NCBI GenBank assembly: GCA_031553775.1 | Contig: JAVBLA010000024.1 | Span: forward strand, 381-64,380 | DNA length: 64,000 nucleotides | DNA from: Bacteroidales bacterium | GTDB lineage: Bacteria; Bacteroidota; Bacteroidia; Bacteroidales; Azobacteroidaceae | Direction of reading: 5' to 3' | Part shown: piece by piece, positions 40,849 to 55,715 of the stretch | Layout of the letters: every line of letters starts with the position of its first letter | How positions within the stretch are numbered: the stretch's first letter is position 1 | Program-made: the position numbers and the translations under genes | Notes under the pieces: model-generated | What the model was told of the DNA's origin: nothing | Seen by the model: the letters and a program-made list of their open reading frames with translations, nothing else | The model's database searches: none

Positions 40849-42399
40849 TCAACGTACAGGTTTATTATACATATAATCGAATGAAGGCCCTACCCTGTCG
40901 AGTGTAGCGCAATTAAACGTTTTTCCTGTATTGGCAATGTGTTGTGCGCCGGCACAGGCAACAATATCCGGACGGGTGCTTCCCGTAATATCTTCCATAA
41001 CAAAATCTACCGGATATTTAGCGATAATGGGAGCTGTACATTCTCCCAGGCCGGACATTCCAAAGTGGTTCGTTTCAAAAGAAAGCGGTTTTTCCGTAAA
41101 ACCCGGTTCTTTGTAGTTCCCGTCTTTTGTTGTTACATAATTGGAAGATATGATCAGATCTGCCTTATTGACATTGTTCTGGAACTGGATCATCTGATTC
41201 CCGGTTCTCCGGGTATTATAAAACAAATTGTTTACAATGGCCGTATTGATAGGATCTTCAATCTGGGTAGCCGCATCTCTGGGGTTGACAAATCCGATCA
41301 GGATAGAATCGCAATCGACAAACGTATTATTCGTAATCACTACATTCCGCACTCTGTGATAACCATTGGAAGCAGAATTTTTAATTCCTTTCAGGATACA
41401 TAGGGGAGCATGAAAATCGGAACCCACACAGGCCTGTACAAAATTGTTGTATATTTTATGATCGGCATTAATCACCCGGATGGCGCCCGTCAGGGGTTTA
41501 TAGTTTCCGAAGATATAATTGGATTCGACGGTATTTCCGTTTCCGTGACGCAATACGATACCTCCTACACTTTCATAAATTGTATTTCTTCTGATGATAT
41601 TTTTTCCAGATTTAATCGAAAGAATTTCTGATTCTCCATCACAATGATAGAAAAAATTATCTTCGATCATTGTATAAGCATCATTCAGAGAAGTATTCGA
41701 GTCACCCAGGCGAATAGTTTCCCCTCCGTTCTTGCCATTATCAGGGCGGTCTCCGAAAAAATTATGGTCGATCCGGCAATAATTATCACTGGTAGTAGGT
41801 CCTTCCAGTTTCAGCATAATATTGGTATTGCTGGAACTTTTTCCCCCGATATAGCAGTGATCGATCCTGTTATATTTTCCGAATATCAGAATCCAGTTCA
41901 CATCTGTTCCCTCAGGAACCGTGTTGTCTTTTCCATCCAGCACACAATTGGTCATCCGGCAGTTAAAAGCATGAACAGAAGAACTCCATTTGAAGGTAAC
42001 TACGGTTCCTTCCTTGAATTCTTTCATTACGATTCCATTCAGGATCATGTATTCACCACCGAATTTAATGGTACTTGCACCATTCAGGATTACCTTTCCC
42101 GGAGTTTCGGCTGTGACAACAATCGGTTTCTCGGCAGTACCCGTACCTGAAATATTCAGGTTTCCGGTATAGGTACCATTCTTGATAACGATCAGTTCTC
42201 CGGGCGAAGCAGAAGCACATGCTTTGGTGGCATTTGAGAGGGTGGTGACTTCCGTTACTTTGGTGTACTGGCTTCTGTCTTTCAGTTCGAACCGGGTTCC
42301 ATCGGGAGACCCCGAATCATAAACATTGAAGGCAGTCTGCGACAACAATGAACTTACAAAACCCGATAAAATAAATACTAAAAATATATTGCGTTTCAT
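40849..42399 (-). CDS. PL6-like polysaccharide lyase (parallel beta-helix, alginate/chondroitinase-B type)
   Basis: Signal peptide. Beta-helix repeats with SEILSIKSGKNIIRRNTIYESVGGIVLRHGNGNTVESNYIFG, which is the PL6 core pattern as I recall it. Confidence 0.78.
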   Translation of the reverse strand: MKRNIFLVFILSGFVSSLLSQTAFNVYDSGSPDGTRFELKDRSQYTKVTEVTTLSNATKACASASPGELIVIKNGTYTGNLNISGTGTAEKPIVVTAETPGKVILNGASTIKFGGEYMILNGIVMKEFKEGTVVTFKWSSSVHAFNCRMTNCVLDGKDNTVPEGTDVNWILIFGKYNRIDHCYIGGKSSSNTNIMLKLEGPTTSDNYCRIDHNFFGDRPDNGKNGGETIRLGDSNTSLNDAYTMIEDNFFYHCDGESEILSIKSGKNIIRRNTIYESVGGIVLRHGNGNTVESNYIFGNYKPLTGAIRVINADHKIYNNFVQACVGSDFHAPLCILKGIKNSASNGYHRVRNVVITNNTFVDCDSILIGFVNPRDAATQIEDPINTAIVNNLFYNTRRTGNQMIQFQNNVNKADLIISSNYVTTKDGNYKEPGFTEKPLSFETNHFGMSGLGECTAPIIAKYPVDFVMEDITGSTRPDIVACAGAQHIANTGKTFNCATLDRVGPSFDYMYNKPVR

Positions 42400-42417: not shown

Positions 42418-45105
42418 TTATTTTTTGATTAATACACCTTTCTTCAGGGTTCCGTCGGCCGACAATGCCGTTACGATATACAGGCCGGAAGAGAAACCGG
42501 TAATATCCACATCTACTTCCAAACGATCGGTTTGTATATCTTTCAATTTCACACCCAAAGAATTATATACCCGGACAGATCTCAAATGCACATCAGATTT
42601 CACACCGAAATAATTATGCGCAGGATTCGGATAGATAACAAGCTGGCTTTCTCCGGAAGGAAGAAACGGGATATCCGTTCCGTCATCAACTATGAAAACA
42701 ATCTTCCACTCTGCCGTTGTACCGTCGTTTGCCGTCACCTCGTAATACTGAGGACAAGCACTTCCTCCGAAATTCCAGATCAGACGGTACGAATTACCAT
42801 TGATCGCTATATCCGGGATTTCATTCTTTATATCTGTACCTTCAAGTACTTTCACCGTAACCGTTTTAGAGGGTTTATCTATCATTGCACTTCCTTTTTG
42901 TCCATTAACAGAAAACGAAGTAATATCTTTATTAGAATCTCCGGGAGAAGCTTCGGTCCTAAATTCCGCTACAGTAAATGTTTCCCGGATTCCATTTACG
43001 GCCTCTACTGTTCCTTCTATGACAATTTGATAGCTTGTAAGAATCGTCAATGGAGAAACCGGCTTGATCGTAACCCGTTTATTTTCATTACTGATTGAAA
43101 CGGATGAAGGCACCTCCGTCGAATTACTTTTTTGCACCAACTTAATATTAGACAATGCATCCGGCAGGCTCACCCCGTTGATTTTTAGAATGGGTGTATC
43201 AAAAATAATGACAGGTTCTACATCTAAAGGGACACTGGTTTCATTATTTTCCGGATAATAAGATGCGCGTATATGCTTTGGTGTAACCGTAATCCCGTCT
43301 ACTATAGCATTTCCTCCTATGGCTGGTTTGTGAGTTAAAATAAAGCGGACATATCTCACTGTATCGTCGAGCGTGACCGGAATTTGCTGTGCGCAATTGG
43401 TAGAAGAAGGAATGACCAGTTCTTCATGGGTTCTTACGACCTCCCAGTATTGTCCTCCGGCAGAAACCTGTACCTGCATAATTCCTTCCCAATTATCTCC
43501 CGAACTTCCGGTAGGGCGGAACCGGTAATCCAATTGTTCCGGAATCAGGTCAAAATACAGCATTACAAAGCTACCTTCGGATGCAATATTTGCCGCTCCA
43601 TTCGGATCGGAGCCTGTTTTAGTGTCATCGTCTCCCAGGTTATAGGCAATCCATCCCTGACGGGACATGGTCTTCCACGGTCCTTCGTAAGTAACCGGAG
43701 ATACGGCAGGTTGGAGCACTTTCACATTGACTTTCCAGGTTTTAACCGCACTTTTATCTTCCGATGTAATAATATATTCTTTTTGTGAGGTAAAATCAGC
43801 CGGAACGGTCAAATTTATATTACAGGTAGCATTAGCAGAAAGAGTTATAAATGGCGAAAGCGAGGCCAGGCTTGTATATCCCCAAACCGTCACTTCTACC
43901 GTAGCGGTTGATACGTTGATCACGGCAATTCCTCTTTCAATTTCAAATTTTGTTATGTCGGCTGCCGTATTAGGCAGTTTTTTCACCGTCAGTGTCCAGG
44001 TTTTCGTAGATCCATCTTCAGCCTTCACAATGAACGTAACCGGAGATGAAATATCTATTTCGTCCGTAACGGATGCCCCGACCAATGAAGCGGCTTCTGA
44101 TAAATTAAACTCGGTAGGCACCAGGCGGTCAGCAGTCGCAAATTTCACGTCTATTTCTATTTTTCCATCCGACGGAAAACGGGTACTTCCCTGCTGCCCG
44201 GGTAATTTAAGGGAAAGAATCTCTTTTGCAGAATTCAATGTACTGCGGGTGGTAAAACTCCATACGGCATCAGACTGGATACCGGGGAAATAAGTATCCG
44301 ACACATCCTTGAACAAAGTCGCCGGAATCAGGATATAATATGTTGTATTGATTGCCAACGCATTCTGCAACTGGAATTCCGCTGTTTTATCTTCAATATC
44401 GATATCACCGGAAGTTACCTGTACAAAGGGTACCGAAGTATTTTCCGTATTAAAAATGGAAATATTACCTGTGCCTTTTTGTATATTTTTATTAAATGTG
44501 AATCGGAATACGGGATTGACCGATATACCGGTTTGCTCGTTTTGAGGAGAAAGGCTTACAATCTGCGGAGGTCCCTGGTCCGGTTTGGACTCGACATAAA
44601 TATCCCAGATATACAATGAGCTTCCCGTATTACTACGCATCCGCAGGGTAATGGCACCTGATGCGTTCAAGGTATAAGTAAACTGGCCGCAGGTATTCTG
44701 GGTAGTAAACGATTCCAACAAATCCCAGTTGGATCCATTCTTTTTTTCCAGGGCGAAAGAGCGGTCGTTGCTTCCTGTGGTGGCATTGATCCTGATCAGA
44801 CCTATATCTTTTAGTTCGGGTAACTCTACGACTCCCTTATTGGAAGCGCAAACAATCCGACCTTTACTGCACTCTCCGGAAGTTCCTGCTCCGGGAGCGC
44901 TTTGGGTAGGAGTTACGGAGCAATCGGTCATTTTGATTACTTTAGTTACTCCTTGTACTGTGATATTTTGCGTATATGATCCGGAAGTCGATTGTGCTGT
45001 CCAGTCCTGGATATTGGTATCGATCAATACTTCCTGAGAGAATATAGCTGTTGATGTTAAAAGGAACAGTATATATAGAAGATATTTGGATAGAGTGGAT
45101 TGCAT
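42418..45105 (-). CDS. multi-domain cell-surface protein with type A T9SS C-terminal domain, function unknown
   Basis: Signal peptide. N-terminal module of about 130 aa shared with the 505-aa protein, Ig-like units, and three beta-sandwich repeats of about 75 aa. C-terminus IYPNPAHNYFGV...GLYIVTALSADGTLKKGVLIKK. Confidence 0.7.
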   Translation of the reverse strand: MQSTLSKYLLYILFLLTSTAIFSQEVLIDTNIQDWTAQSTSGSYTQNITVQGVTKVIKMTDCSVTPTQSAPGAGTSGECSKGRIVCASNKGVVELPELKDIGLIRINATTGSNDRSFALEKKNGSNWDLLESFTTQNTCGQFTYTLNASGAITLRMRSNTGSSLYIWDIYVESKPDQGPPQIVSLSPQNEQTGISVNPVFRFTFNKNIQKGTGNISIFNTENTSVPFVQVTSGDIDIEDKTAEFQLQNALAINTTYYILIPATLFKDVSDTYFPGIQSDAVWSFTTRSTLNSAKEILSLKLPGQQGSTRFPSDGKIEIDVKFATADRLVPTEFNLSEAASLVGASVTDEIDISSPVTFIVKAEDGSTKTWTLTVKKLPNTAADITKFEIERGIAVINVSTATVEVTVWGYTSLASLSPFITLSANATCNINLTVPADFTSQKEYIITSEDKSAVKTWKVNVKVLQPAVSPVTYEGPWKTMSRQGWIAYNLGDDDTKTGSDPNGAANIASEGSFVMLYFDLIPEQLDYRFRPTGSSGDNWEGIMQVQVSAGGQYWEVVRTHEELVIPSSTNCAQQIPVTLDDTVRYVRFILTHKPAIGGNAIVDGITVTPKHIRASYYPENNETSVPLDVEPVIIFDTPILKINGVSLPDALSNIKLVQKSNSTEVPSSVSISNENKRVTIKPVSPLTILTSYQIVIEGTVEAVNGIRETFTVAEFRTEASPGDSNKDITSFSVNGQKGSAMIDKPSKTVTVKVLEGTDIKNEIPDIAINGNSYRLIWNFGGSACPQYYEVTANDGTTAEWKIVFIVDDGTDIPFLPSGESQLVIYPNPAHNYFGVKSDVHLRSVRVYNSLGVKLKDIQTDRLEVDVDITGFSSGLYIVTALSADGTLKKGVLIKK

Positions 45106-45155
45106 GTCTGTGTTTTTTTAGGGATTGGAGATTTCGGGATCGTATTTCAAGTTTT

Positions 45156-45204
45156 TTTTACCACGGAGTACATGGAGTTTTTAAATATATACTCCGTGGT
45201 AAAA
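45156..45204 (-). terminator. 15-bp perfect hairpin between PUL genes (terminator or RNA-stabilising structure)
   Basis: TTTTACCACGGAGTA / TACTCCGTGGTAAAA with a 19-nt loop. No clear U-tract on the minus strand. Confidence 0.45.
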
Positions 45205-45236
45205 TGGATTTTAGTTACACGTAAAAGCTAAACAAA

Positions 45237-47669
45237 TTATTTAATTTGTTTCAGCACTTTAAATGATTGCATGCTTCCGTCTTCATAGATTACTTTTCTA
45301 ATCAATAATCCTGTGGCAGACGGAGAGGCTACGGCACCCGTTACGGTGTAAAATTGTTCGGATACGACTTTCAGGTCGGCAACATCTACAGAATTAATTG
45401 CCGTATTGGTATTGGGAATCCAACGGAAATTATCGACAGAAACCTGTCCTCCGCTGAGGTTTTTCACGATTACTTTAGACGCAGTCTTCAGATTGAAAGT
45501 AATATCTCCTGTATTGACCGGCCAGGGAGTTCCTGCCACGGTAATCGTTTCTATCAGGTTATCTTCTGTTCCTGCATCGTTTTTATAGATTCCCAGGGTT
45601 ACTGTTCCGGAGCATTGTAATACATCCAGGTTGATTGTTCCTACGGAAGGCAGGCTGACTGCCATGGCTCCGTTGCTGGCTGATTTTTCTAACAGAATAG
45701 AAGTCCCTTCAATTGCTTTTGTACTTGAATTTCTGGTTGTACCTGTAAATGAATAAGCTATATCAGCATTGGTGATCACAATCGGCTCTGTAGGTATGCT
45801 ACCTGTCGATGTAGGCAATGTGGTAAAACCGGTATTGAAATTTTCTATTTTATCATATGCTTTATATACGGGAGCCCAGTATACAGAAGATGTAAGAATA
45901 GAAGAAGCATCCGTAATCTTCAGTTGGTAATACAAGGTATCTCCTGATTTCAGGGCAGGAATAGTTGCCGATTCATACAAACCACCGGTAGTAGTTAAAG
46001 GAAGCACTCCTCCCGTCAGACCAGGATCTGTTCCCCATTTCACTTCTACAGCTTCAATATCCGTATCTGTGATCTTTCCTATGAATTTAATGGCATCTGT
46101 TTCACTCGGGAAACGCGGGCTGGTATACATATCCTCGATTACAGGAACTTTGTTGGCTTTATACGCAGTCAGGGTCATATTATCCAAGCCAATCTGTGTA
46201 GTTCCGGCACCATCAGCTTCGATCCTGACCACAATCGGTCCGTTATAATCGATATCCACTTTCTTTTGTGCAAAAACCGTATTGGTCGGTTTTACGATAC
46301 GGCTATCTACCAACTCGGTAAAGGTTCCGGTATTTCCTTTATCGACGCTGATCTTCAAGTCGAGAGAAGTATTGGTGCTACTGCTGTGTTTTTGCCAGAA
46401 AACCAGAGAACCGGCGCTGTTCATGACAGCAGTCTGCAATACCGGATTAGCAACGGACAAAGCCATGGAATTTCCTCCTCCATAAATCAGGTTGGCAGTA
46501 CTGAACAAGCCGGTTGAAACTGCAGCATCCCAATAATTGGATTCCAGTTCTCCACTATCGAAATCGTCATTGATCAGAAAATCAGTGGAAGACAGGCTTC
46601 CGATGGTAGTGAAATTACGAACAATCGCCGGGGATGTTTCAGTTCCTGCTTCAAAAGCACCTGCAGGAATGGTCAATGTATACGATTTATCTGAGAGCAG
46701 AGTCATAGGAATAGTAGCCACTGCACCATCAACCGTTACATTTTCAAGAGAAATATCGGTAATACTTGCTCCATCGGATAATATAATAGTTCCAGTTCCT
46801 TTAGTCACTGCTTTATTGAATGTTACTGTAGCCTCGGTTAATGCAGAATACAAAAATTCCGCGTTCTGTTCCGGTACAACCGACTCAATTTCCAAGGCTG
46901 TAGCAGCGTAAGAAGCCACTGCTTCCGTCCACTCGGTACAGACACGGGCTCCTCCTACATAAAAATTAGCAATGGATGATCCGTTATGTTTGAACATTAA
47001 TTTGCTAAGAGAAGTTCTTACTGTTCCTTTCGAGTCGTCATAAACTTCTGAAGCTGTTGGTTCTGTTGCCGAACCGATTACAGGATTAATGAACAAAGTT
47101 GCTTTCTGTGCGGTAAAATCATATTTCACCACAAGCAGGTATACTTCTCCAGTACTTATATCTGAACTTCCCCACTGAATTTCACCGCTGGTTGTACTTA
47201 CCCTTGTTACTCCCAGGCGGAATGGATTTTTCGAACCACTTGCCGATTTACCGGCCCACGGTTTTACCGCTGAGTTAGAGGTCTGATCAGCCAGGCCTAT
47301 CACTTCCGAAGCAGTTTGTCCCTGGTCGCCATCTCCTTTATACAAGAATGAAAGATAGACAACTCCCGAAGTAACCGCTGTAAAACTCCTGTATGAAATA
47401 TAGTTGCTTCCGGATGCATAATTATTGCGAACAGATTTTCCAAGTCCCGAGAGGATGTAAGTACCTCCAATATTAGAGTAAGTAAGTGGATTCGTTAATA
47501 TCCGGCCATCTCCGGTAGTGAGAGTACCTGTGGTAGTCCACGATGAGACCGATGCATCTGTCAGAGTAGCCGCAGTATAATCGAATGTTTCATCCAGGAT
47601 AACCGTAGCTTGTAGAGAAAATGCCACTGCCAGAGGCAGCATCAATGCGATTAAACGTTTCATATTCAT
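45237..47669 (-). CDS. secreted protein of unknown function with T9SS-CTD-like tail; paralog of 47677..49194
   Basis: Signal peptide. N-terminal domain of about 250 aa (ILDETFDY ... LFINPVIG ... GGARVCTEWTEAV) shared with the 505-aa protein, one Ig-like unit, and the tail FYTVTGAVASPSATGLLIRKVIYEDGSMQSFKVLK. Confidence 0.7.
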   Translation of the reverse strand: MNMKRLIALMLPLAVAFSLQATVILDETFDYTAATLTDASVSSWTTTGTLTTGDGRILTNPLTYSNIGGTYILSGLGKSVRNNYASGSNYISYRSFTAVTSGVVYLSFLYKGDGDQGQTASEVIGLADQTSNSAVKPWAGKSASGSKNPFRLGVTRVSTTSGEIQWGSSDISTGEVYLLVVKYDFTAQKATLFINPVIGSATEPTASEVYDDSKGTVRTSLSKLMFKHNGSSIANFYVGGARVCTEWTEAVASYAATALEIESVVPEQNAEFLYSALTEATVTFNKAVTKGTGTIILSDGASITDISLENVTVDGAVATIPMTLLSDKSYTLTIPAGAFEAGTETSPAIVRNFTTIGSLSSTDFLINDDFDSGELESNYWDAAVSTGLFSTANLIYGGGNSMALSVANPVLQTAVMNSAGSLVFWQKHSSSTNTSLDLKISVDKGNTGTFTELVDSRIVKPTNTVFAQKKVDIDYNGPIVVRIEADGAGTTQIGLDNMTLTAYKANKVPVIEDMYTSPRFPSETDAIKFIGKITDTDIEAVEVKWGTDPGLTGGVLPLTTTGGLYESATIPALKSGDTLYYQLKITDASSILTSSVYWAPVYKAYDKIENFNTGFTTLPTSTGSIPTEPIVITNADIAYSFTGTTRNSSTKAIEGTSILLEKSASNGAMAVSLPSVGTINLDVLQCSGTVTLGIYKNDAGTEDNLIETITVAGTPWPVNTGDITFNLKTASKVIVKNLSGGQVSVDNFRWIPNTNTAINSVDVADLKVVSEQFYTVTGAVASPSATGLLIRKVIYEDGSMQSFKVLKQIK

Positions 47670-47676
47670 TTGTGTT

Positions 47677-49194
47677 TTATTGGTGGTTGATAAATACTTT
47701 GGAAGTTTTCAGGCTACCGTCTTCATATAAGTCTTTTTTGATGTAGAGTCCTTTTTGCGGTTCACGGACTTCCATTCCTGTAATCGTATAATATCTGGAA
47801 GATACCACTTCACCTTTATTTACGATAACCCAATTGATCGGAGAATTATCTTTTACATAATCCGTCATCCATACTTCGTAAAAATAAAGAGTAGAACTGG
47901 TATTGTTAATCAGTCGCACAGTAACGGGAGTAGCCGAATTGACATCATAAGAAAAACTGGCACAAGCCGAGGCTGAAGAAGTTTCAGATAAAGTTTCAGA
48001 TGGTGTGGTAAAGGTGGCCAGGTCATCCCAGTTGGCTCCATTTTTCTTCTGTAACTTGAATGTTTTACTTACGCTTCCGGTATTGGCATTTACCGTTACT
48101 TTTCCACAACTCGTTACCTGAGGAAATTCAAGTACTCCGGCAGCTGTTTTACTATCCGTTTTTTGAAGGATAATTCTACCCACTGAAGAAGCTCCGGCTA
48201 TTTCCTTTGTAGTTTCGACAGAACAATTTTCCAGCAACATATTTCCGGTACCTGTACCTACAGGGACAGAAACCGTATAATTTCCCAAAGCCTGGTCTGT
48301 CCATGGTGTTGCATTGAATTGTTCATGTATGATTTCTTTGGAAGTATAATTTCCTCCATCGTCAGAACCTTGTCCTTCCACCACGCTTTCCCAGGTAGAG
48401 CCCAAGCGGATACCTCCGATCAGGGCACTGATTCCTCTTTGGCGAAGGTTGATAGCAACACCGGCGCTTGCACCATAATCAGCAACAGTAGTATTATCGG
48501 CTGCCGTTAATTTCACGGAAGAAGCTTGTTCCGCTTCCGTTTTTAGAGGATCTGGATTGAGGAATAATTCAATAATATCATTTCCGGTCGCACCACCAGG
48601 ATCACTTTCATTGTATGTATAAACCAATACCATCAGGTTTGTCTTTCCACAATCGACTTCAGGAAAACTCGTTGGAGTTGAAGCATTTTTACTAATACCG
48701 AATGTAACTTTTCCTGCAGTACTGACTTTAGCAAAAACACGTCCTCTCGTACTTGAGCTGGTCAGAGAAGCTTCAAAGTCAAAAAAATCCCGGTCAGCAC
48801 TGGTTTTGGAGTCTGCGCCCACATTGACTAAGAAAGCTACATATACCTTTTTCATTTCGCTGTATTTTGCAGTATCTCCTGCTGCATCGATCACGAACCT
48901 TGTAGTAATCCGTTGATCGGCAGACGTTGCTCCGATAGCCGGATCTAATTTAGCCACAGCAGTTTCGCTTTTTCCTTTATATCCGGAATAGTTCAGACTA
49001 CCAGCAACTATCTGAGGCGACGCACCTCCATTTTCACCGCTTTTCTTACAAACATACCAGGCTCCTTTTCCAGAAACGCCTCCTTGTCCTTCCAGCGCTC
49101 CGCTGGGATAATCAAAATTTTCCTCAAACAACAATTGTGCATGGACTGCCAAAACAGAAATACACATAAACATTAAAAGTACAATCTTCTTCAT
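47677..49194 (-). CDS. secreted protein of unknown function with T9SS-CTD-like tail; paralog of 45237..47669
   Basis: Signal peptide. LFEENFDY ... LFLNPDP ... GGIRLGSTWESVV, then a GVLEFPQV...KKNGANWDDLATFTT module shared with the 895-aa protein. Tail YYTITGMEVREPQKGLYIKKDLYEDGSLKTSKVF. Confidence 0.7.
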   Translation of the reverse strand: MKKIVLLMFMCISVLAVHAQLLFEENFDYPSGALEGQGGVSGKGAWYVCKKSGENGGASPQIVAGSLNYSGYKGKSETAVAKLDPAIGATSADQRITTRFVIDAAGDTAKYSEMKKVYVAFLVNVGADSKTSADRDFFDFEASLTSSSTRGRVFAKVSTAGKVTFGISKNASTPTSFPEVDCGKTNLMVLVYTYNESDPGGATGNDIIELFLNPDPLKTEAEQASSVKLTAADNTTVADYGASAGVAINLRQRGISALIGGIRLGSTWESVVEGQGSDDGGNYTSKEIIHEQFNATPWTDQALGNYTVSVPVGTGTGNMLLENCSVETTKEIAGASSVGRIILQKTDSKTAAGVLEFPQVTSCGKVTVNANTGSVSKTFKLQKKNGANWDDLATFTTPSETLSETSSASACASFSYDVNSATPVTVRLINNTSSTLYFYEVWMTDYVKDNSPINWVIVNKGEVVSSRYYTITGMEVREPQKGLYIKKDLYEDGSLKTSKVFINHQ

Positions 49195-49245: not shown

Positions 49246-50130
49246 TCATCCAATCACCTTTATTTTTTTCAAAAAGGTAATCATCGCCTCACTGATTTTT
49301 TTATTTTCTTCTTTTGAAAATTTCCCATGTTCACCACCCGGGACAGTCATAAACTCGCAGTACACTCCATTTTCTTTCAGCTTTTTCTCCAGACGGACAG
49401 ATTGATCGTACGGAACGATCGGATCGGCATCACCATGCACAATAAATGTGGGAGGTGTATTTTTGTTAACATAATATATAGGAGAGATGGAACGGATAAA
49501 TTCCACATCATTGATCCGGTCGGCCACCCAACGGACAGCCGATTTATAGGGTTTGGGCCCCACAGAAAAATCGACCATATCGGAAATGCCGTACTTATCC
49601 AATACAGCCGCCGCTTTGATGGTTTTTACTCCCTGCCTGTCGATATCGTACAGCGGGTTGTTGGCCAGATAGCCACCCATCAAAGCCAGATGTCCTCCGG
49701 CCGATCCTCCCATTAATACGATTTTATCGGGATCGATATTCAATTCTTTCGCATGTTTGACCAGATAGATCATCAGAGAACGCACATCCTGGATAGCTGC
49801 CGGAGCCGGAGCCTCATCTACCAGGCGATAAGAGATATTGGCAACTGCCATGTTGTTCTTAAAAAAAGACGAAAAACCCCGTTGACTTTCTTTGTTTCCA
49901 TGGTTCCAGCCGCCTCCGTAAATATTGATAAGCACCGGAGCCGGTTTGCCGGTATTGGGGGGAAGGTACAGATCGACTTTCCCTTCCCACCCATTCACCA
50001 CCTCATAAACCACATCTAACTGATATGTAAAACCTTTCGGGATAACCACCCCATAAGCAGTAGAATCGCTTTGGGCATACAAGCCGCTAATACGGCACAT
50101 TACCAGTATGATCAATAATAATTTCTTCAT
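49246..50130 (-). CDS. alpha/beta-hydrolase esterase (carbohydrate esterase candidate)
   Basis: Signal peptide. Oxyanion GGGWNHG, nucleophile elbow MGGSAGGH (GxSxG), and HGDADPIVP supplying the acid/His region. Confidence 0.8.
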   Translation of the reverse strand: MKKLLLIILVMCRISGLYAQSDSTAYGVVIPKGFTYQLDVVYEVVNGWEGKVDLYLPPNTGKPAPVLINIYGGGWNHGNKESQRGFSSFFKNNMAVANISYRLVDEAPAPAAIQDVRSLMIYLVKHAKELNIDPDKIVLMGGSAGGHLALMGGYLANNPLYDIDRQGVKTIKAAAVLDKYGISDMVDFSVGPKPYKSAVRWVADRINDVEFIRSISPIYYVNKNTPPTFIVHGDADPIVPYDQSVRLEKKLKENGVYCEFMTVPGGEHGKFSKEENKKISEAMITFLKKIKVIG

Positions 50131-50132
50131 TT

Positions 50133-53054
50133 TTACTTCAGGATAAATTTAGTTGTAGCTTTGTATGTATCTGTGTTCAATTCGAAAATATAGATTCCTC
50201 CGGGAAGATCCACAGGAATTATTACGCTGTTCATTCCTTCGGACGATTTGATTGCAATACTTTTCATTAGTCTGCCATTCACATCGTATAAGTTAATCGT
50301 TCCTTCTGCAATTGTTTGTGCCGAAAATTCGGCTTTTACGATGCCCGGAGCATATCCGTAAACCTGCACAACAGGTCTGTATCCCGCATTTTCAGGAAGA
50401 TGACTATTCACAATCAACTCAAAATCAATGGCATCCGGGCCTACATGTTCTGTTCCCAGCACACCGGCTGTAATAGATGTATTATTATAAGCATCGGCTC
50501 CAATGGTTTTAACCGATCCTCTCGGCTGACCTTCGAAATCCAGTGTGACATAATCAAAATTGCCTGTTGCTGCATTTATCGCCGGACTTCCCGCCGTTAG
50601 CTTATAAACAGCATAAGGAAGTTTATGTGAACAATCATCACCTGCCGTCCGGCAATCGGATCTTACCAATTGCGGATCTACCTGTTTTACCTGGCTTTCC
50701 GTAACAGTGATACCAATGGAGGAAGCTCCTGTAGGATACATGATATTATTAGAAAAAGAAACTCCGGCCAAAGCATTGGTACTGTAAGCCTTCACTATGG
50801 GAGCCGTATCATCGATAAAAATATTATTGGCGATCTGGCAGTTTACCGGATACTTCTTATAATTCTCATTATTGGTAAATCCTATCTCAATGTTCGATTT
50901 GTTATTCACATAAGTATTGAATGCAAAAATCACATTTTCAGGAATATAATGAGAGCTGTAACTGGTCGATGTATTGGCATTGTCGCCATTGGTAATGGTA
51001 CAGGCTGCATCCCATTTTTCACCGGTTAATCCTTCAAAATAATTATTGAAGATTTTATGATCTTTTGCGTATACCCGGATACCACCGCAACCATTACCAT
51101 CCACGGTTTTACCCTCTCCGAAAAAATAATTGCCTTCTACCGTGTTACGGAATCCCTGGCGAAGACTCAGGGTACCCAGGCATCTGCGGAATGTATTATA
51201 GCGGATGATATTGTCGCAAGACTTGACCGAAACGATTTCCGGATCCCCGTCGCAATCTTCAAACAGGTTATATTCTACTGTGCAATAGGCGCTGCAAGGC
51301 GTCAGATCGCTGACTCCAAGACGAATGGTTTCTTTTTCATTGTCTACGCGAGGTGTATTGTTCCGGAAATAATTGTGATCGATCCGGTCGTATTTCGAGA
51401 TATCGCCGGGATCCGTTCCGTGAGCACCATCCAATACCACCCAGGCGCCACCGTCTACTTTTGTATCGAAATAATTATGGTCGATCCGGTTATGGTGACT
51501 GATACAAACCTTATTGTTCCAGACATCGCCTATTAAAATCCATTTGGAAGTTTGCCCCTCGGTAAGCTTATTCATCCGGAGCACATTTTTTGTAATGCGG
51601 ATATTGTTACATCCTTCTAATTTAAAAAGACTCTCCACCGGATCCGATTCAATGGTCAATCCTTCGAAAGTAAGATATTCCAAACCATTTTTCAATGTAA
51701 AAGCCACTTTTCCTTTCAATACGGCTTTGCCCTGGTTTTTTGCCTTAATATAGATCGGACGATCCGGACAACCGCTCCGGGCGACCGACAGAGCAGTACA
51801 AGTATATTCTCCATCGGCCAACTCGATGATATCTCCCGGGTTCATTACGCCCAAGGCAGATTTCAGTTCTGTAAAATTCTTCACGGAACGGGTCTGGGCC
51901 GGCGTTGTATTTTCTGTGATACCTACTCCAATCTGCATATTGGAAGTGATCGTAAAGGTTTTCGTGACTTCAGTTCCGGACAAATCGCCTGTCCATCCGT
52001 TGAATTGCTCACAGTTCGAATAACTAACATTCGCTGTAATATTTGTATGGCTGTAATAATAAGAGTCTGCCGATTCCGGAGTAATCGTAATACTTCCTTT
52101 GACCGGCTGAACAACTGTCAATAAATATTTGGCGGGAGGATCAGATTCGTCGATGATTACATTTGCACCGATCGTCATATTCCTATCTACAGTAAATATC
52201 TTTATTAATTCCGTACCATCCAGGTCGCCGGTCCAACCGGCATTTTTATATCCCTGGGGAACCGACAATGTGGCTGTTACCTGCGTACCGTTTTCATATT
52301 CCGGTTGATCGGGGTTCAATGTAATCTTACCAATTTCCGGTTGGGCTAATGTAATTACCCTGGCGTTTGCCGTTCCTCCGAAAGAGATATCAGATATGGG
52401 GTTGGTACCTACATACATATCGTCGATCGCAATATCACAATCTGTTGTAGATGCTGCATGAGCAAAACGCAGGGAATGGAAATCCATCGGAGTCGCCCGG
52501 ACTTCCCTGAAACTCAATTCATTGTCGTAAGCCGATCCATTCAAAGCGAAACGATATTTCTGTGTGGAATTGCTGAGTTTGAAAGAAATGCGGAACCATG
52601 TATTCAGGGTATAAGTGGGTTTGATGGTGGAAGACCCTGAACTTCCGTCGAATATCTTAATTTTATTATCGGTACCAAATTCCACTAAAAAATGCCGGCT
52701 ATTGGAAGACGCCAGATCAAATCCCGTAATAGAAAAAGTTGCTCCGATCGACTTGATTTTCAACCAAAGATCCACATATACATCATCGGAAATACCAGCG
52801 GCGTTTTTGGCATAAGGTTCGAAATCCACCTGGGTTTGTACTTTGTTCAGCAACTGTAATCCCTTGGTTCCCGTATGTGCGTAATCGGAATTGCTTACCA
52901 CAACACCCGTACCGTTAGTAATGGTCCAGTTTTGTTGCCCTTTAATACTCCCCGGCGTATAATCTTCAAAAGAAGAATTGATCGCAATGGTTTGCCCGTA
53001 GCTCAGAAAAGGAGCCAACAGTAGCAAAGAGATGATATGTAAAAACTGTTTCAT
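50133..53054 (-). CDS. multi-domain PL6-like lyase with N-terminal jelly-roll-like domain, two InlB-B/Listeria-Bacteroides-type repeats and type A T9SS C-terminal domain
   Basis: ATG at 53054 (MKQFLHIISLLLLAPFLSYGQ). Repeats ...GWTGDLDGTE / ...GWTGDLSGTE. PL6 core PEIVSVKSCDNIIRYNTFRRCLGTLSLRQGFRNTVEGNYFFG. C-terminus INLYDVNGRLMKSI...GGIYIFELNT...KFILK. Confidence 0.78.
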   Translation of the reverse strand: MKQFLHIISLLLLAPFLSYGQTIAINSSFEDYTPGSIKGQQNWTITNGTGVVVSNSDYAHTGTKGLQLLNKVQTQVDFEPYAKNAAGISDDVYVDLWLKIKSIGATFSITGFDLASSNSRHFLVEFGTDNKIKIFDGSSGSSTIKPTYTLNTWFRISFKLSNSTQKYRFALNGSAYDNELSFREVRATPMDFHSLRFAHAASTTDCDIAIDDMYVGTNPISDISFGGTANARVITLAQPEIGKITLNPDQPEYENGTQVTATLSVPQGYKNAGWTGDLDGTELIKIFTVDRNMTIGANVIIDESDPPAKYLLTVVQPVKGSITITPESADSYYYSHTNITANVSYSNCEQFNGWTGDLSGTEVTKTFTITSNMQIGVGITENTTPAQTRSVKNFTELKSALGVMNPGDIIELADGEYTCTALSVARSGCPDRPIYIKAKNQGKAVLKGKVAFTLKNGLEYLTFEGLTIESDPVESLFKLEGCNNIRITKNVLRMNKLTEGQTSKWILIGDVWNNKVCISHHNRIDHNYFDTKVDGGAWVVLDGAHGTDPGDISKYDRIDHNYFRNNTPRVDNEKETIRLGVSDLTPCSAYCTVEYNLFEDCDGDPEIVSVKSCDNIIRYNTFRRCLGTLSLRQGFRNTVEGNYFFGEGKTVDGNGCGGIRVYAKDHKIFNNYFEGLTGEKWDAACTITNGDNANTSTSYSSHYIPENVIFAFNTYVNNKSNIEIGFTNNENYKKYPVNCQIANNIFIDDTAPIVKAYSTNALAGVSFSNNIMYPTGASSIGITVTESQVKQVDPQLVRSDCRTAGDDCSHKLPYAVYKLTAGSPAINAATGNFDYVTLDFEGQPRGSVKTIGADAYNNTSITAGVLGTEHVGPDAIDFELIVNSHLPENAGYRPVVQVYGYAPGIVKAEFSAQTIAEGTINLYDVNGRLMKSIAIKSSEGMNSVIIPVDLPGGIYIFELNTDTYKATTKFILK

Positions 53055-53092
53055 GGACTGAGATTTAATGAACAGAAATAGAGTGTAAATCA

Positions 53093-53126
53093 CTTGTTGT
53101 TGCGGAACCAGATCCGCAACAACAAG
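53093..53126 (-). terminator. 14-bp hairpin between SDR gene and PL6 gene (internal terminator/attenuator candidate)
   Basis: CTTGTTGTTGCGGA-ACCAGA-TCCGCAACAACAAG, 17 nt after the SDR stop. Followed on the minus strand by TGATTT. Confidence 0.5.
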
Positions 53127-53143
53127 CAAGCATCTTTTTATAT

Positions 53144-55364: not shown

Positions 55365-55715
55365 TCAGATGGTTGCGTGAAAGTCTTCACGGATCGGGCT
55401 GAACACATCGATCAGGATACCGGCTTCCAGGCATACGCATCCATGGATGATATTGGGTTCCGTATAAAAACCGTCGCCTGCCTGCAATATCTTCGTTTCG
55501 TTTCCGATGGTCATTTCAAATTTACCGGATACAACATAGGTTGTTTGAGCGTGGACATGTGCATGTTGTATGCCTATGGCACCTTTTTCAAACATGACTT
55601 TCACCATCATGATACTGTTGTCATACCCTACAAATTGGCGGGTAATTCCTTCGCCTGCGGTGTAGATTTTCTCGTCCGCTGCAATAAAGAACGGCTTACT
55701 TTGAATTTTTTCCAT
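55365..55715 (-). CDS. kdgF: cupin-domain protein KdgF-like
   Basis: 116 aa. Cupin His cluster (GIQHAHVHAQ ... HG). Position next to uronate catabolism genes. Confidence 0.75.
   Translation of the reverse strand: MEKIQSKPFFIAADEKIYTAGEGITRQFVGYDNSIMMVKVMFEKGAIGIQHAHVHAQTTYVVSGKFEMTIGNETKILQAGDGFYTEPNIIHGCVCLEAGILIDVFSPIREDFHATI

Follow-up and report, generated by a model that had tools for sequence, protein, structure and literature searches.

Shared modules of three secreted proteins in a Bacteroidales alginate utilization locus as candidate polyuronate-binding families

What is the role of three large secreted proteins that lie among the lyase and esterase genes of an alginate utilization locus and resemble no known lyase? 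This question is raised by a 64,000-nucleotide stretch of DNA from a Bacteroidales bacterium of the family Azobacteroidaceae (GenBank assembly GCA_031553775.1, contig JAVBLA010000024.1, positions 381 to 64,380 of the forward strand), which in its full length is called the window below. Its polysaccharide utilization locus (PUL) contains three open reading frames, all on the minus strand, which encode p505 (47677..49194, 505 aa), p810 (45237..47669, 810 aa; the start used in the database is M3, which yields 808 aa) and p895 (42418..45105, 895 aa). A first-pass annotation, made from the DNA alone, had described them as proteins of shuffled modules that might represent either new alginate-binding modules or a new lyase family. 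The first part of this proposal is favored by our data, on the grounds of lectin-like and carbohydrate-binding-module (CBM)-like predicted folds and of separate alginate clades, whereas the second part is not. We consider it rather probable that the three proteins have no catalytic function but are secreted, glycan-binding proteins of multi-module build, which belong to the alginate (polyuronate) utilization locus and are displayed by the type IX secretion system (T9SS).

The modular relationship of the three proteins was confirmed. A hidden Markov model (HMM) built from residues 19-276 of p505 spans residues 21-254 of p810 (E=9.7e-50), and thus the two proteins do share an N-terminal domain of about 250 aa. 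Pairwise BLASTP aligned only the first 34 residues of these N-termini (E=2e-4), and bridging proteins match both of them at about 1e-16. The motif pairs on which the domain had originally been proposed share alignment columns (E25/E27, F27/F29, Y29/Y31, L210/L192, N213/N195, P214/P196, G261/G240, R263/R242 and W268/W247 in p505/p810 numbering). The second shared module was recovered by BLASTP between residues 285-443 of p505 and 23-171 of p895 (33% identity over 160 aa, E=3e-20), and the closely similar C-terminal tails between residues 755-806 of p810 and 450-501 of p505 (44% identity over 52 aa, E=5e-9). We refer to these elements as module A (about 235-255 aa, the N-terminus of p505 and p810), module B (about 150 aa) and the tail (about 50 aa).

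In p505, the signal peptide is followed by module A (aa 19-275, 48370..49140; A-HMM domain E=7.9e-84), module B (aa 284-446, 47857..48345; B-HMM E=2.8e-50 to 3.5e-55) and a short tail resembling a shortened T9SS C-terminal domain (CTD), which is matched by our tail HMM (aa 454-503, 47686..47835). In p810, the signal peptide and module A (aa 21-254, 46908..47609) precede a first Ig-like domain of Big_5-like type (aa 259-356, 46602..46895; BLASTP to the Big_5 region of p895, E=0.005), a region called X1 (aa 360-505, 46155..46592), a second Ig-like domain (aa 506-603, 45861..46154), a region called Y (aa 604-752, 45414..45860) and the same type of tail (aa 759-808, 45246..45395). The signal peptide of p895 is followed by module B (aa 23-174, 44584..45039; B-HMM E=2.1e-47 to 9.4e-52), a Big_5 Ig-like domain (aa 176-286, 44248..44580; PF13205 E=1.5e-21, 77.6 bits in two stretches against a cut-off of 23.6) and DUF5018-related Ig pairs; its C-terminal portion comprises a weak F5/8-C-like region, Big_5/DUF5018 and a canonical type-A CTD (aa 824-895, 42421..42636; PF18962, TIGR04183).

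More detailed inspection of p810 suggested that its C-terminal part, the core (Ig-X1-Ig-Y-tail), is a rare unit. It is about 60% identical in two other genomes only: a word-based search yielded one homolog, and a six-frame search of 400 genomes added only the one in genome G388. The first Ig-like domain shares 61-65% identity with two orthologs and forms beta strands at predicted local distance difference test (pLDDT) values of 60-74. Of the whole core, only the second one (beta strands at pLDDT 52-77) has counterparts in other proteins (28-38% identity). X1 was modeled at a pLDDT below 40; its alignment with module B reached a probability of only 41% in hhalign, and the word-based and six-frame searches found relatives of it only in P0184/L008_725 and G388. 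Region Y is probably a divergent module B: an alignment of three Y orthologs matched B over 84 columns (hhalign probability 91.5%, E=8.5e-7), and the single-profile B-HMM detected Y at E~1e-3 only. The head attached to this core varies, being a p810-type module A here, a p505-type module A in G388 and B plus Big_5 in locus L008. Since the core bears a different head in each genome, A and B behave as interchangeable heads. For p895, no full-length ortholog was found in 400 genomes of the order, and each of its pieces matches different proteins.

Delineation of the domains by AlphaFold2 (AF2) gave the same division for p505. The model of this protein, which was built on an alignment of 87 sequences, had a mean pLDDT of 88.4; it is all-beta and consists of module A (21-275), module B (285-445) and a tail with three strands. 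Its best fold match in the PDB was 8x8h (E=9.6e-7, TMt 0.63), a carbohydrate-binding domain that belongs to a putative pectate lyase, followed by CBM22, CBM4, lectin-like toxin domains, SGBP-B (7kwb) and a gingipain adhesin domain. The model of p810 was confident only for module A (pLDDT about 85) and the Ig parts and unreliable at aa 356-510 and 602-763, where the alignment depth was two sequences; for this reason its fold search was in effect specific for A. Here, the best of the 50 matches listed of 139 at E<=1e-3 were the calreticulin lectin domain (3o0v), legume lectins such as soybean agglutinin (1sbf) and the carbohydrate recognition domain of Emp47p (2a6z); E-values ranged from 3.5e-6 to 1e-4, TMt from 0.45 to 0.54 and identity from 9 to 12%. 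Module A is thus predicted to be a jelly roll of the L-type-lectin or concanavalin-A-like kind, with calreticulin among its fold matches. As 8x8h is absent from the A-only match list of the p810 model, it most likely matches module B, and B itself is most likely a CBM-like beta-sandwich.

At the level of primary structure the modules stand alone. A, B, X1, Y and the tail matched nothing in Pfam (even at E<=10), in NCBIfam or among PDB sequences, and when PDB chains were searched with family profiles of 87 (A) and 18 (B) sequences, only the T9SS CTDs 8glj and 8glk were retrieved, at the C-terminal columns. The earlier statement that no recognizable lyase signature is present therefore holds for A and B, for which none of these databases gave an enzyme match. 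PL7 (PF08787) was matched neither by module A (E<=10) nor by any of the 87 family members, PL7 chains were absent from the PDB sequence matches of the three proteins and of the family profile, and the 50 PDB matches that Foldseek listed for each model included no lyase, be it of the PL7/PL14/PL18 jelly-roll type or another. There is also no conserved His in 164 module-A sequences, whereas the catalytic set of PL7/14/18 on the concave sheet is Arg-Gln-His-Tyr. The L-type lectin families (PF00139, PF03388, PF00262) gave no Pfam match, so that the resemblance to lectins is one of fold only (TMt ~0.5), and CBM96 (7VBO) was recovered neither by single-sequence and profile searches of PDB chains nor among the 50 listed fold matches of each model. 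Pfam negatives must be read with caution in this locus: its GH88 is missed by PF07470 (even at E<=1) yet matches PDB entry 3wiw (E=2e-109), and a missing Pfam match is therefore weak evidence and not proof by itself. In architecture, A and B resemble CBMs in the generic CAZy sense: in the AF2 model both are independent beta-sandwich domains, and they are appended to carbohydrate-active enzymes (esterase and CE8 fusions). Two further ideas were rejected. The LamG-like N-terminal region of the 998-aa PL6 lyase of the locus does not contain module A (no A-HMM match), and p505, p810 and p895 are not lipoproteins of the SusE/F-like surface glycan-binding protein (SGBP) type, which was dismissed because they have no lipobox and do not follow susD.

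It had been suggested that co-occurrence of the modules with PL6/PL17 genes in other genomes be checked. We examined eight loci, which were reached via the relatives P0002, P0003, P0004, P0005, P0021, P0030 and P0041, and all eight were of the alginate type. They contain PL6, a PF05426/PL38-type lyase, a PL17-like lyase, cupin, MFS and SDR genes, often together with esterases and GH88, and carry one to four A/B genes each (at least two, except for the short metagenome contig L010). The p505 orthologs P0002, P0003 and P0004 are all located in alginate PULs. A locus search seeded with four orthologs returned only two loci of metagenome-assembled genomes (MAGs), both of which were already known. 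Among the architectures in these loci were A-fn3-B-Big_5-BD-FAE esterase, A-fn3-B-fn3-CTD, A-A and minimal A-CTD; it can be seen that A and B are fused to the N-terminus of BD-FAE esterases in other alginate loci. In two loci (L010:3252-5975 and L006:6922-9891) the gene preceding the p505 ortholog encodes a protein of 907-989 aa that combines a p810-type module A and about 500 aa free of Pfam matches with InlB B-repeats (Flg_new_2) and the short tail; this protein occupies the position that the PL6-CTD protein has in the genome studied here and shows no BLAST similarity to PL6. In the alginate-type loci L019, L021 and L023, which lie on metagenome or MAG contigs, SusC and SusD were not seen within the ~17-23 kb examined. 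Two or three esterases (BD-FAE, SASA) are encoded there along with GH88 and several CTD proteins, and these three loci possibly come from Ignavibacteriota-like lineages. The A/B modules thus seem to accompany alginate genes outside classical PULs as well.

Of 401 genomes of the order that were scanned without bias, 61 contained module A, 15 PL6 and 6 both. Among genomes with PL6, the share of A genes lying inside the PL6 locus was 2/2 in G000, 4/7 in G001, 4/4 in G149 and 1/2 in G254. Within the genome studied here, copies of module B are present in p505, in p895 and in a 780-aa esterase of the locus, and two more in a CE8 pectinesterase that has a CTD. The latter enzyme (921 aa; L002:3739-6504, minus strand, contig C71) carries fn3, B copies at aa 504-653 and 666-837 and a type-A CTD; here module B sits on a pectin-active enzyme outside the alginate locus, and both copies are divergent.

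A maximum-likelihood tree of 62 module-A sequences (quick search, SH-aLRT support only) placed all 29 alginate-locus copies on one side of a single branch (98% SH-aLRT) and all 32 other copies on the opposite side. The alginate-locus copies fall into a p810-type clade (16 sequences, 100%), a p505-type clade (10, 97%) and a third clade (3, 99%), the first two of which include the A modules of p810 and p505, respectively. The alginate-locus label requires a single change on this tree, a value that none of 500 label shuffles equaled (shuffled mean 20.6 changes). Part of this clustering is built in, because 16 of the 29 alginate-locus rows were reached through similarity to p505 and p810. The 13 alginate-locus copies from the unbiased scan all obey the rule; two of these, from G388, were labeled by orthology, as the shortness of their contig leaves no room for a PL6 gene to be seen nearby. 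Paralogs of the same genome (G001, G254) were also split by location.

The positions conserved throughout the A family are mostly aromatic or hydrophobic (W46, Y69, Y72, Y118, L187, V189, N213-P214, G261, R263, W268). On top of these, the p505-type clade has gained conserved basic residues at R95 (vs D), R135 (vs D), R150 and R253 (vs G), and the p810-type clade at R56 (vs I), K78 (vs N), K111 (vs N), K141 and R156. The median net charge of module A is -2 and -4.5 in the alginate clades and -6 in the non-alginate clade. The Arg/Lys gains and the less negative charge would fit an adaptation to a polyanion. For module B, the tree consists of two superclades, one of which comprises the esterases and the A-fn3-B proteins of alginate loci; a preference of B for acidic polymers is a reasonable guess.

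Each of the three proteins carries a Sec signal peptide, and their N-termini (MKKIVLLMFMCISVLAVHAQ, MNMKRLIALMLPLAVAFSLQA and MQSTLSKYLLYILFLLTSTAIFSQ) contain no lipobox ([GAS]-C). The C-terminal domain of p895 is a genuine type-A CTD, which scores 34.0 bits with PF18962 (cut-off 27, aa 824-889) and 29.1 bits with TIGR04183 (cut-off 23). The tail of p505 and p810 aligned in hhalign with canonical type-A CTDs over their C-terminal half only (E=2.6e-5, probability 75%). With them it has the motifs YYT.TG ... G.YI.K ... K.. in common; in contrast to them it lacks the first ~30 residues and a loop and has three predicted strands. At the position of the tail, 35 of the 87 family members carry PF18962, and SprA was found in the genome (2801 bits). 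About six proteins of the genome end with this tail, which was observed on a PL1 pectate lyase with CBM77 (L004:5054-7219, plus strand, contig C29), on a 421-aa protein of C29, on a 798-aa protein of C65 and on a 572-aa protein of C57. The tail appears to be a minor version of the T9SS sorting signal, spread over the genome and missed by the curated CTD models, and in p505 and p810 we read it as a putative shortened T9SS sorting signal.

The three genes belong to a co-directional run with gaps of 2-131 nt in the order GntR, PL17, KdgF-like cupin, MFS, SDR, PL6 (998 aa), BD-FAE esterase, p505, p810, p895 and PL6 (516 aa). SusC and SusD are oriented divergently from this run, and the distance from susD to p505, p810 and p895, which have the opposite strand, is 10-17 kb. 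The neighbor of p505 is a BD-FAE esterase of 294 aa (49246..50130, minus strand; PF20434, E=3.3e-66), homologs of which are fused to A and B elsewhere; it shares 48% identity with the esterase part of P0030 (A-B-Ig-esterase). It is preceded by the 998-aa PL6 lyase with a T9SS CTD (50133..53129, minus strand; PF14592 E=3.1e-55, TIGR04183 32.2 bits), and the 516-aa PL6 lyase (40849..42399, minus strand; PF14592 E=2.4e-86) follows 18 nt after p895. The KdgF-like cupin (116 aa; 55365-55715, minus strand), which lies between PL17 and the MFS transporter, is 85% identical to a Cupin_2 protein of the alginate PUL L008. The 131-nt gap between p810 and p895 contains a perfect 18-bp hairpin (45156..45204, minus strand; -27 kcal/mol, z=-4.57, none of 200 shuffles as stable), which on the sense strand is preceded by a U-run and followed by an A-run instead of a second U-run. 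It is no classical terminator for this operon and may be a transcript-stabilizing or processing element or a terminator of antisense transcription. A scan for sigma-70 promoters and terminators, which is unsuited to Bacteroidota, performed no better than shuffles.

The locus continues for at least 12 kb past the end of the window, after SusD (contig C84:64000-76118, here L001). The genes there encode, in this order, a TIG-domain protein (501 aa), a PL6 (763 aa), a 628-aa protein, a PL38-type lyase (417 aa) and a GH88 (418 aa; L001:7202-8458, plus strand; the match to 3wiw given above), and L001 ends with the 780-aa esterase (MAM-like-B-Big_5-BD-FAE) and a fifth PL6 that is cut by the contig end. 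The PL38-type alginate lyase matches 3nfv (E=5e-149) and a BoPL38 chain (9FHT-9FHV; E=6e-59). The first-pass view of a locus without an endolytic lyase is thus refuted: a PL38-type lyase, two more PL6 and GH88 lie 0.4-12 kb beyond the window, and the apparent gap was an artefact of the window edge. As for PL7 itself, PF08787 was not found in the whole genome by a search run without a positive control. The 628-aa protein (L001:4039-5925, plus strand) has no Pfam or PDB sequence match and is conserved, with 64% identity to a 604-aa protein of a Dysgonamonadaceae alginate PUL (L006) and 59% in L008; its relatives always lie between the TIG/PL6 genes and the PL38-type lyase. We regard it as a stronger candidate for an undescribed enzyme than p505, p810 or p895.

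How could the three proteins work? From the Sec signals together with the C-terminal sorting domains we infer export by T9SS and probable surface retention. Sec signal peptide and CTD would bring p505, p810 and p895 across the outer membrane, and the proteins would probably be held on the cell surface. The Ig-like domains (Big_5, DUF5018-related) may act as spacers between the A/B heads. A and B would bind the polyuronate chain and thereby concentrate the substrate near the T9SS-secreted PL6, the acetylesterases and the SusC/SusD importer, and in other alginate loci they would direct BD-FAE esterases to the substrate. Our data would also fit a T9SS-displayed, lipoprotein-independent layer for glycan capture, whose heads are swapped freely onto conserved cores and esterases; A and B would then amount to two new alginate-specific CBM families. 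We put A and B forward as candidate new binding-module families.

Several observations weigh against this interpretation. The match to 8x8h came from a Foldseek search with the whole of p505, which does not report the matching module, and the fold matches are moderate (TM ~0.5-0.63). PF18962 and TIGR04183 do not match the tails of p505 and p810, even at E<=10 with the isolated 65-aa tails, and given this failure of the curated models the tails are putative CTDs. The modules are acidic overall (median pI 5.1-5.6). In 55 of the 61 genomes with module A there is no PL6, so that the wider A family is not alginate-specific; distant module-B domains head giant fn3/LTD/Endonuclease I proteins, and the B domains of p505 and p895 fall into the superclade of nuclease-type proteins and not with the esterase fusions. 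Finally, X1 is the most locus-specific part of p810, and as this region gave neither a confident model nor an assignment it may have a catalytic role. A rival view is that one of the modules, with A and X1 as candidates, is a new polysaccharide lyase or another catalytic domain. Module A is predicted to be a jelly roll of the size and fold class of PL7/PL14/PL18, minimal A-CTD proteins are encoded in operons with lyase genes on either side, A has conserved Tyr, Arg and Gln residues (Y72, Y118, R150, R152, R251-Q252), no PL7 was detected in the genome, and X1 is about 60% conserved in three alginate loci only and has no assignable fold. However, it is lectins without catalytic activity that A matches best in fold, with no lyase among the 50 listed, and a conserved His is missing. 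The invariant residues of A occur in the non-alginate clade as well, and those specific to the alginate clades are Arg/Lys; A occurs in A-A tandems, as a CBM-like appendage of esterases and, in the wider family, in T9SS cargo that is not carbohydrate-active; X1 comprises just about 145 aa between Ig domains; and with five PL6, PL17 and a PL38-type lyase the locus needs no further lyase. We consequently regard a catalytic role of module A as unlikely and a lyase or other catalytic domain among these modules as very improbable. There is likewise only a slim chance that the alginate clades of A or the X1/Y core of p810 carry a new polyuronate catalysis in the form of a jelly-roll lyase unrelated to PL7/14/18, a deacetylase or an epimerase.

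The distribution of the modules could also mean that they are generic adhesin or scaffold domains of T9SS cargo, which are present in alginate loci by descent and by horizontal transfer of whole loci. In line with this, the genomes without PL6, which are the majority of those with A, carry this module as part of large, adhesin-like CTD proteins encoded next to housekeeping genes; B occurs in combination with fn3, LTD, Endonuclease I and Calx-beta domains, p895 is assembled from widespread Ig-type modules and has no ortholog, and shared locus ancestry alone can cluster the labels on a tree. Such an explanation does not account well for the recurrence of three alginate clades across differing gene orders and architectures, some of them without SusC/D in the examined stretch, nor for the separation of same-genome paralogs by location, the independent gain of conserved basic residues in both main alginate clades and the fusion to substrate-specific esterases, and we consider it unlikely. 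A different doubt concerns the ligand, which might be an acidic polymer other than brown-algal alginate, such as O-acetylated bacterial alginate, an alginate-like exopolymer, glucuronan or other polyanions, in the course of biofilm-matrix foraging. The locus has two BD-FAE esterases plus GH88, to which related loci add SASA/SGNH esterases and GH88, and according to a published study (PMC13377030) esterases are absent from seaweed-alginate PULs and would be required for bacterial alginate. The relatives come from non-marine MAGs (for example of Dysgonamonadaceae, Paludibacteraceae and Ignavibacteriaceae), and B is also found on a pectinesterase and, in distant relatives, on nucleases. On the other hand, PL6, PL17, PL38, KdgF, SDR and MFS constitute the canonical alginate set. 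We give this alternative little credence; it refines the glycan-binding interpretation rather than opposing it, and the esterases together with GH88 suggest that the substrate is O-acetylated bacterial alginate or a related exopolymer.

The putative glycan-binding proteins of this enzyme operon can be compared with several known systems. Among CBM families, only CBM96 (2022) binds internal alginate chains specifically, by means of a groove lined with Lys/Arg and Tyr (PMC9971899). Like A and B, CBM96 of the Defluviitalea phaphyphila lyase Dp0100 (PDB 7VBO; PMC9971899) is a non-catalytic beta-sandwich appended to alginate-active enzymes, and its Lys/Arg-based binding has a parallel in the Arg/Lys gains of the alginate clades of module A. 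In contrast, there is no sequence similarity, A is larger (~250 aa) with a predicted L-type lectin fold, and A and B reside on T9SS cargo and esterases and not on a lyase. SusE, SusF and SGBP-B are PUL-encoded, non-catalytic, multi-domain beta-sandwich proteins that are thought to hold the substrate beside SusC/D, and SGBP-B of B. thetaiotaomicron is the one that appeared among the fold matches of p505 (7kwb). Those proteins are lipoproteins encoded just after susD, whereas p505, p810 and p895 are encoded in the enzyme operon and carry T9SS domains, and the post-SusD position is held here by the TIG-domain protein. With the L-type lectins (3o0v, 1sbf, 2a6z) module A has the predicted ~250-aa concanavalin-A-like jelly roll in common; it differs from them as bacterial T9SS cargo with 9-12% identity and no lectin Pfam match. 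The domain 8x8h, for which no paper was found, resembles p505 as its best fold match and in its attachment to a polyuronate-acting enzyme, but the identity is 12% and the B profile does not detect 8x8h by sequence. Proteins like p505, p810 and p895 are not described in the ruminant alginate-PUL paper.

To our knowledge, the retention of alginate at the cell surface of Bacteroidota is poorly described. If A and B bind polyuronates, they would constitute two new families of binding modules whose specificity residues are clear and open to testing (R95/R135/R150/R253 in p505 and R56/K78/K111/K141/R156 in p810), and the non-alginate A clade, including the same-genome paralogs, would provide a natural negative control. 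With acetylated bacterial alginate or alginate-like exopolymer of the biofilm and granular-sludge matrix as substrate, the system would be relevant to biofilm turnover, and the A/B modules could serve as probes for such polymers. If this interpretation is true, CTD-anchored cargo with swappable heads could take the place of SusE/F-type lipoproteins in glycan capture in T9SS-bearing anaerobic Bacteroidales and related lineages.

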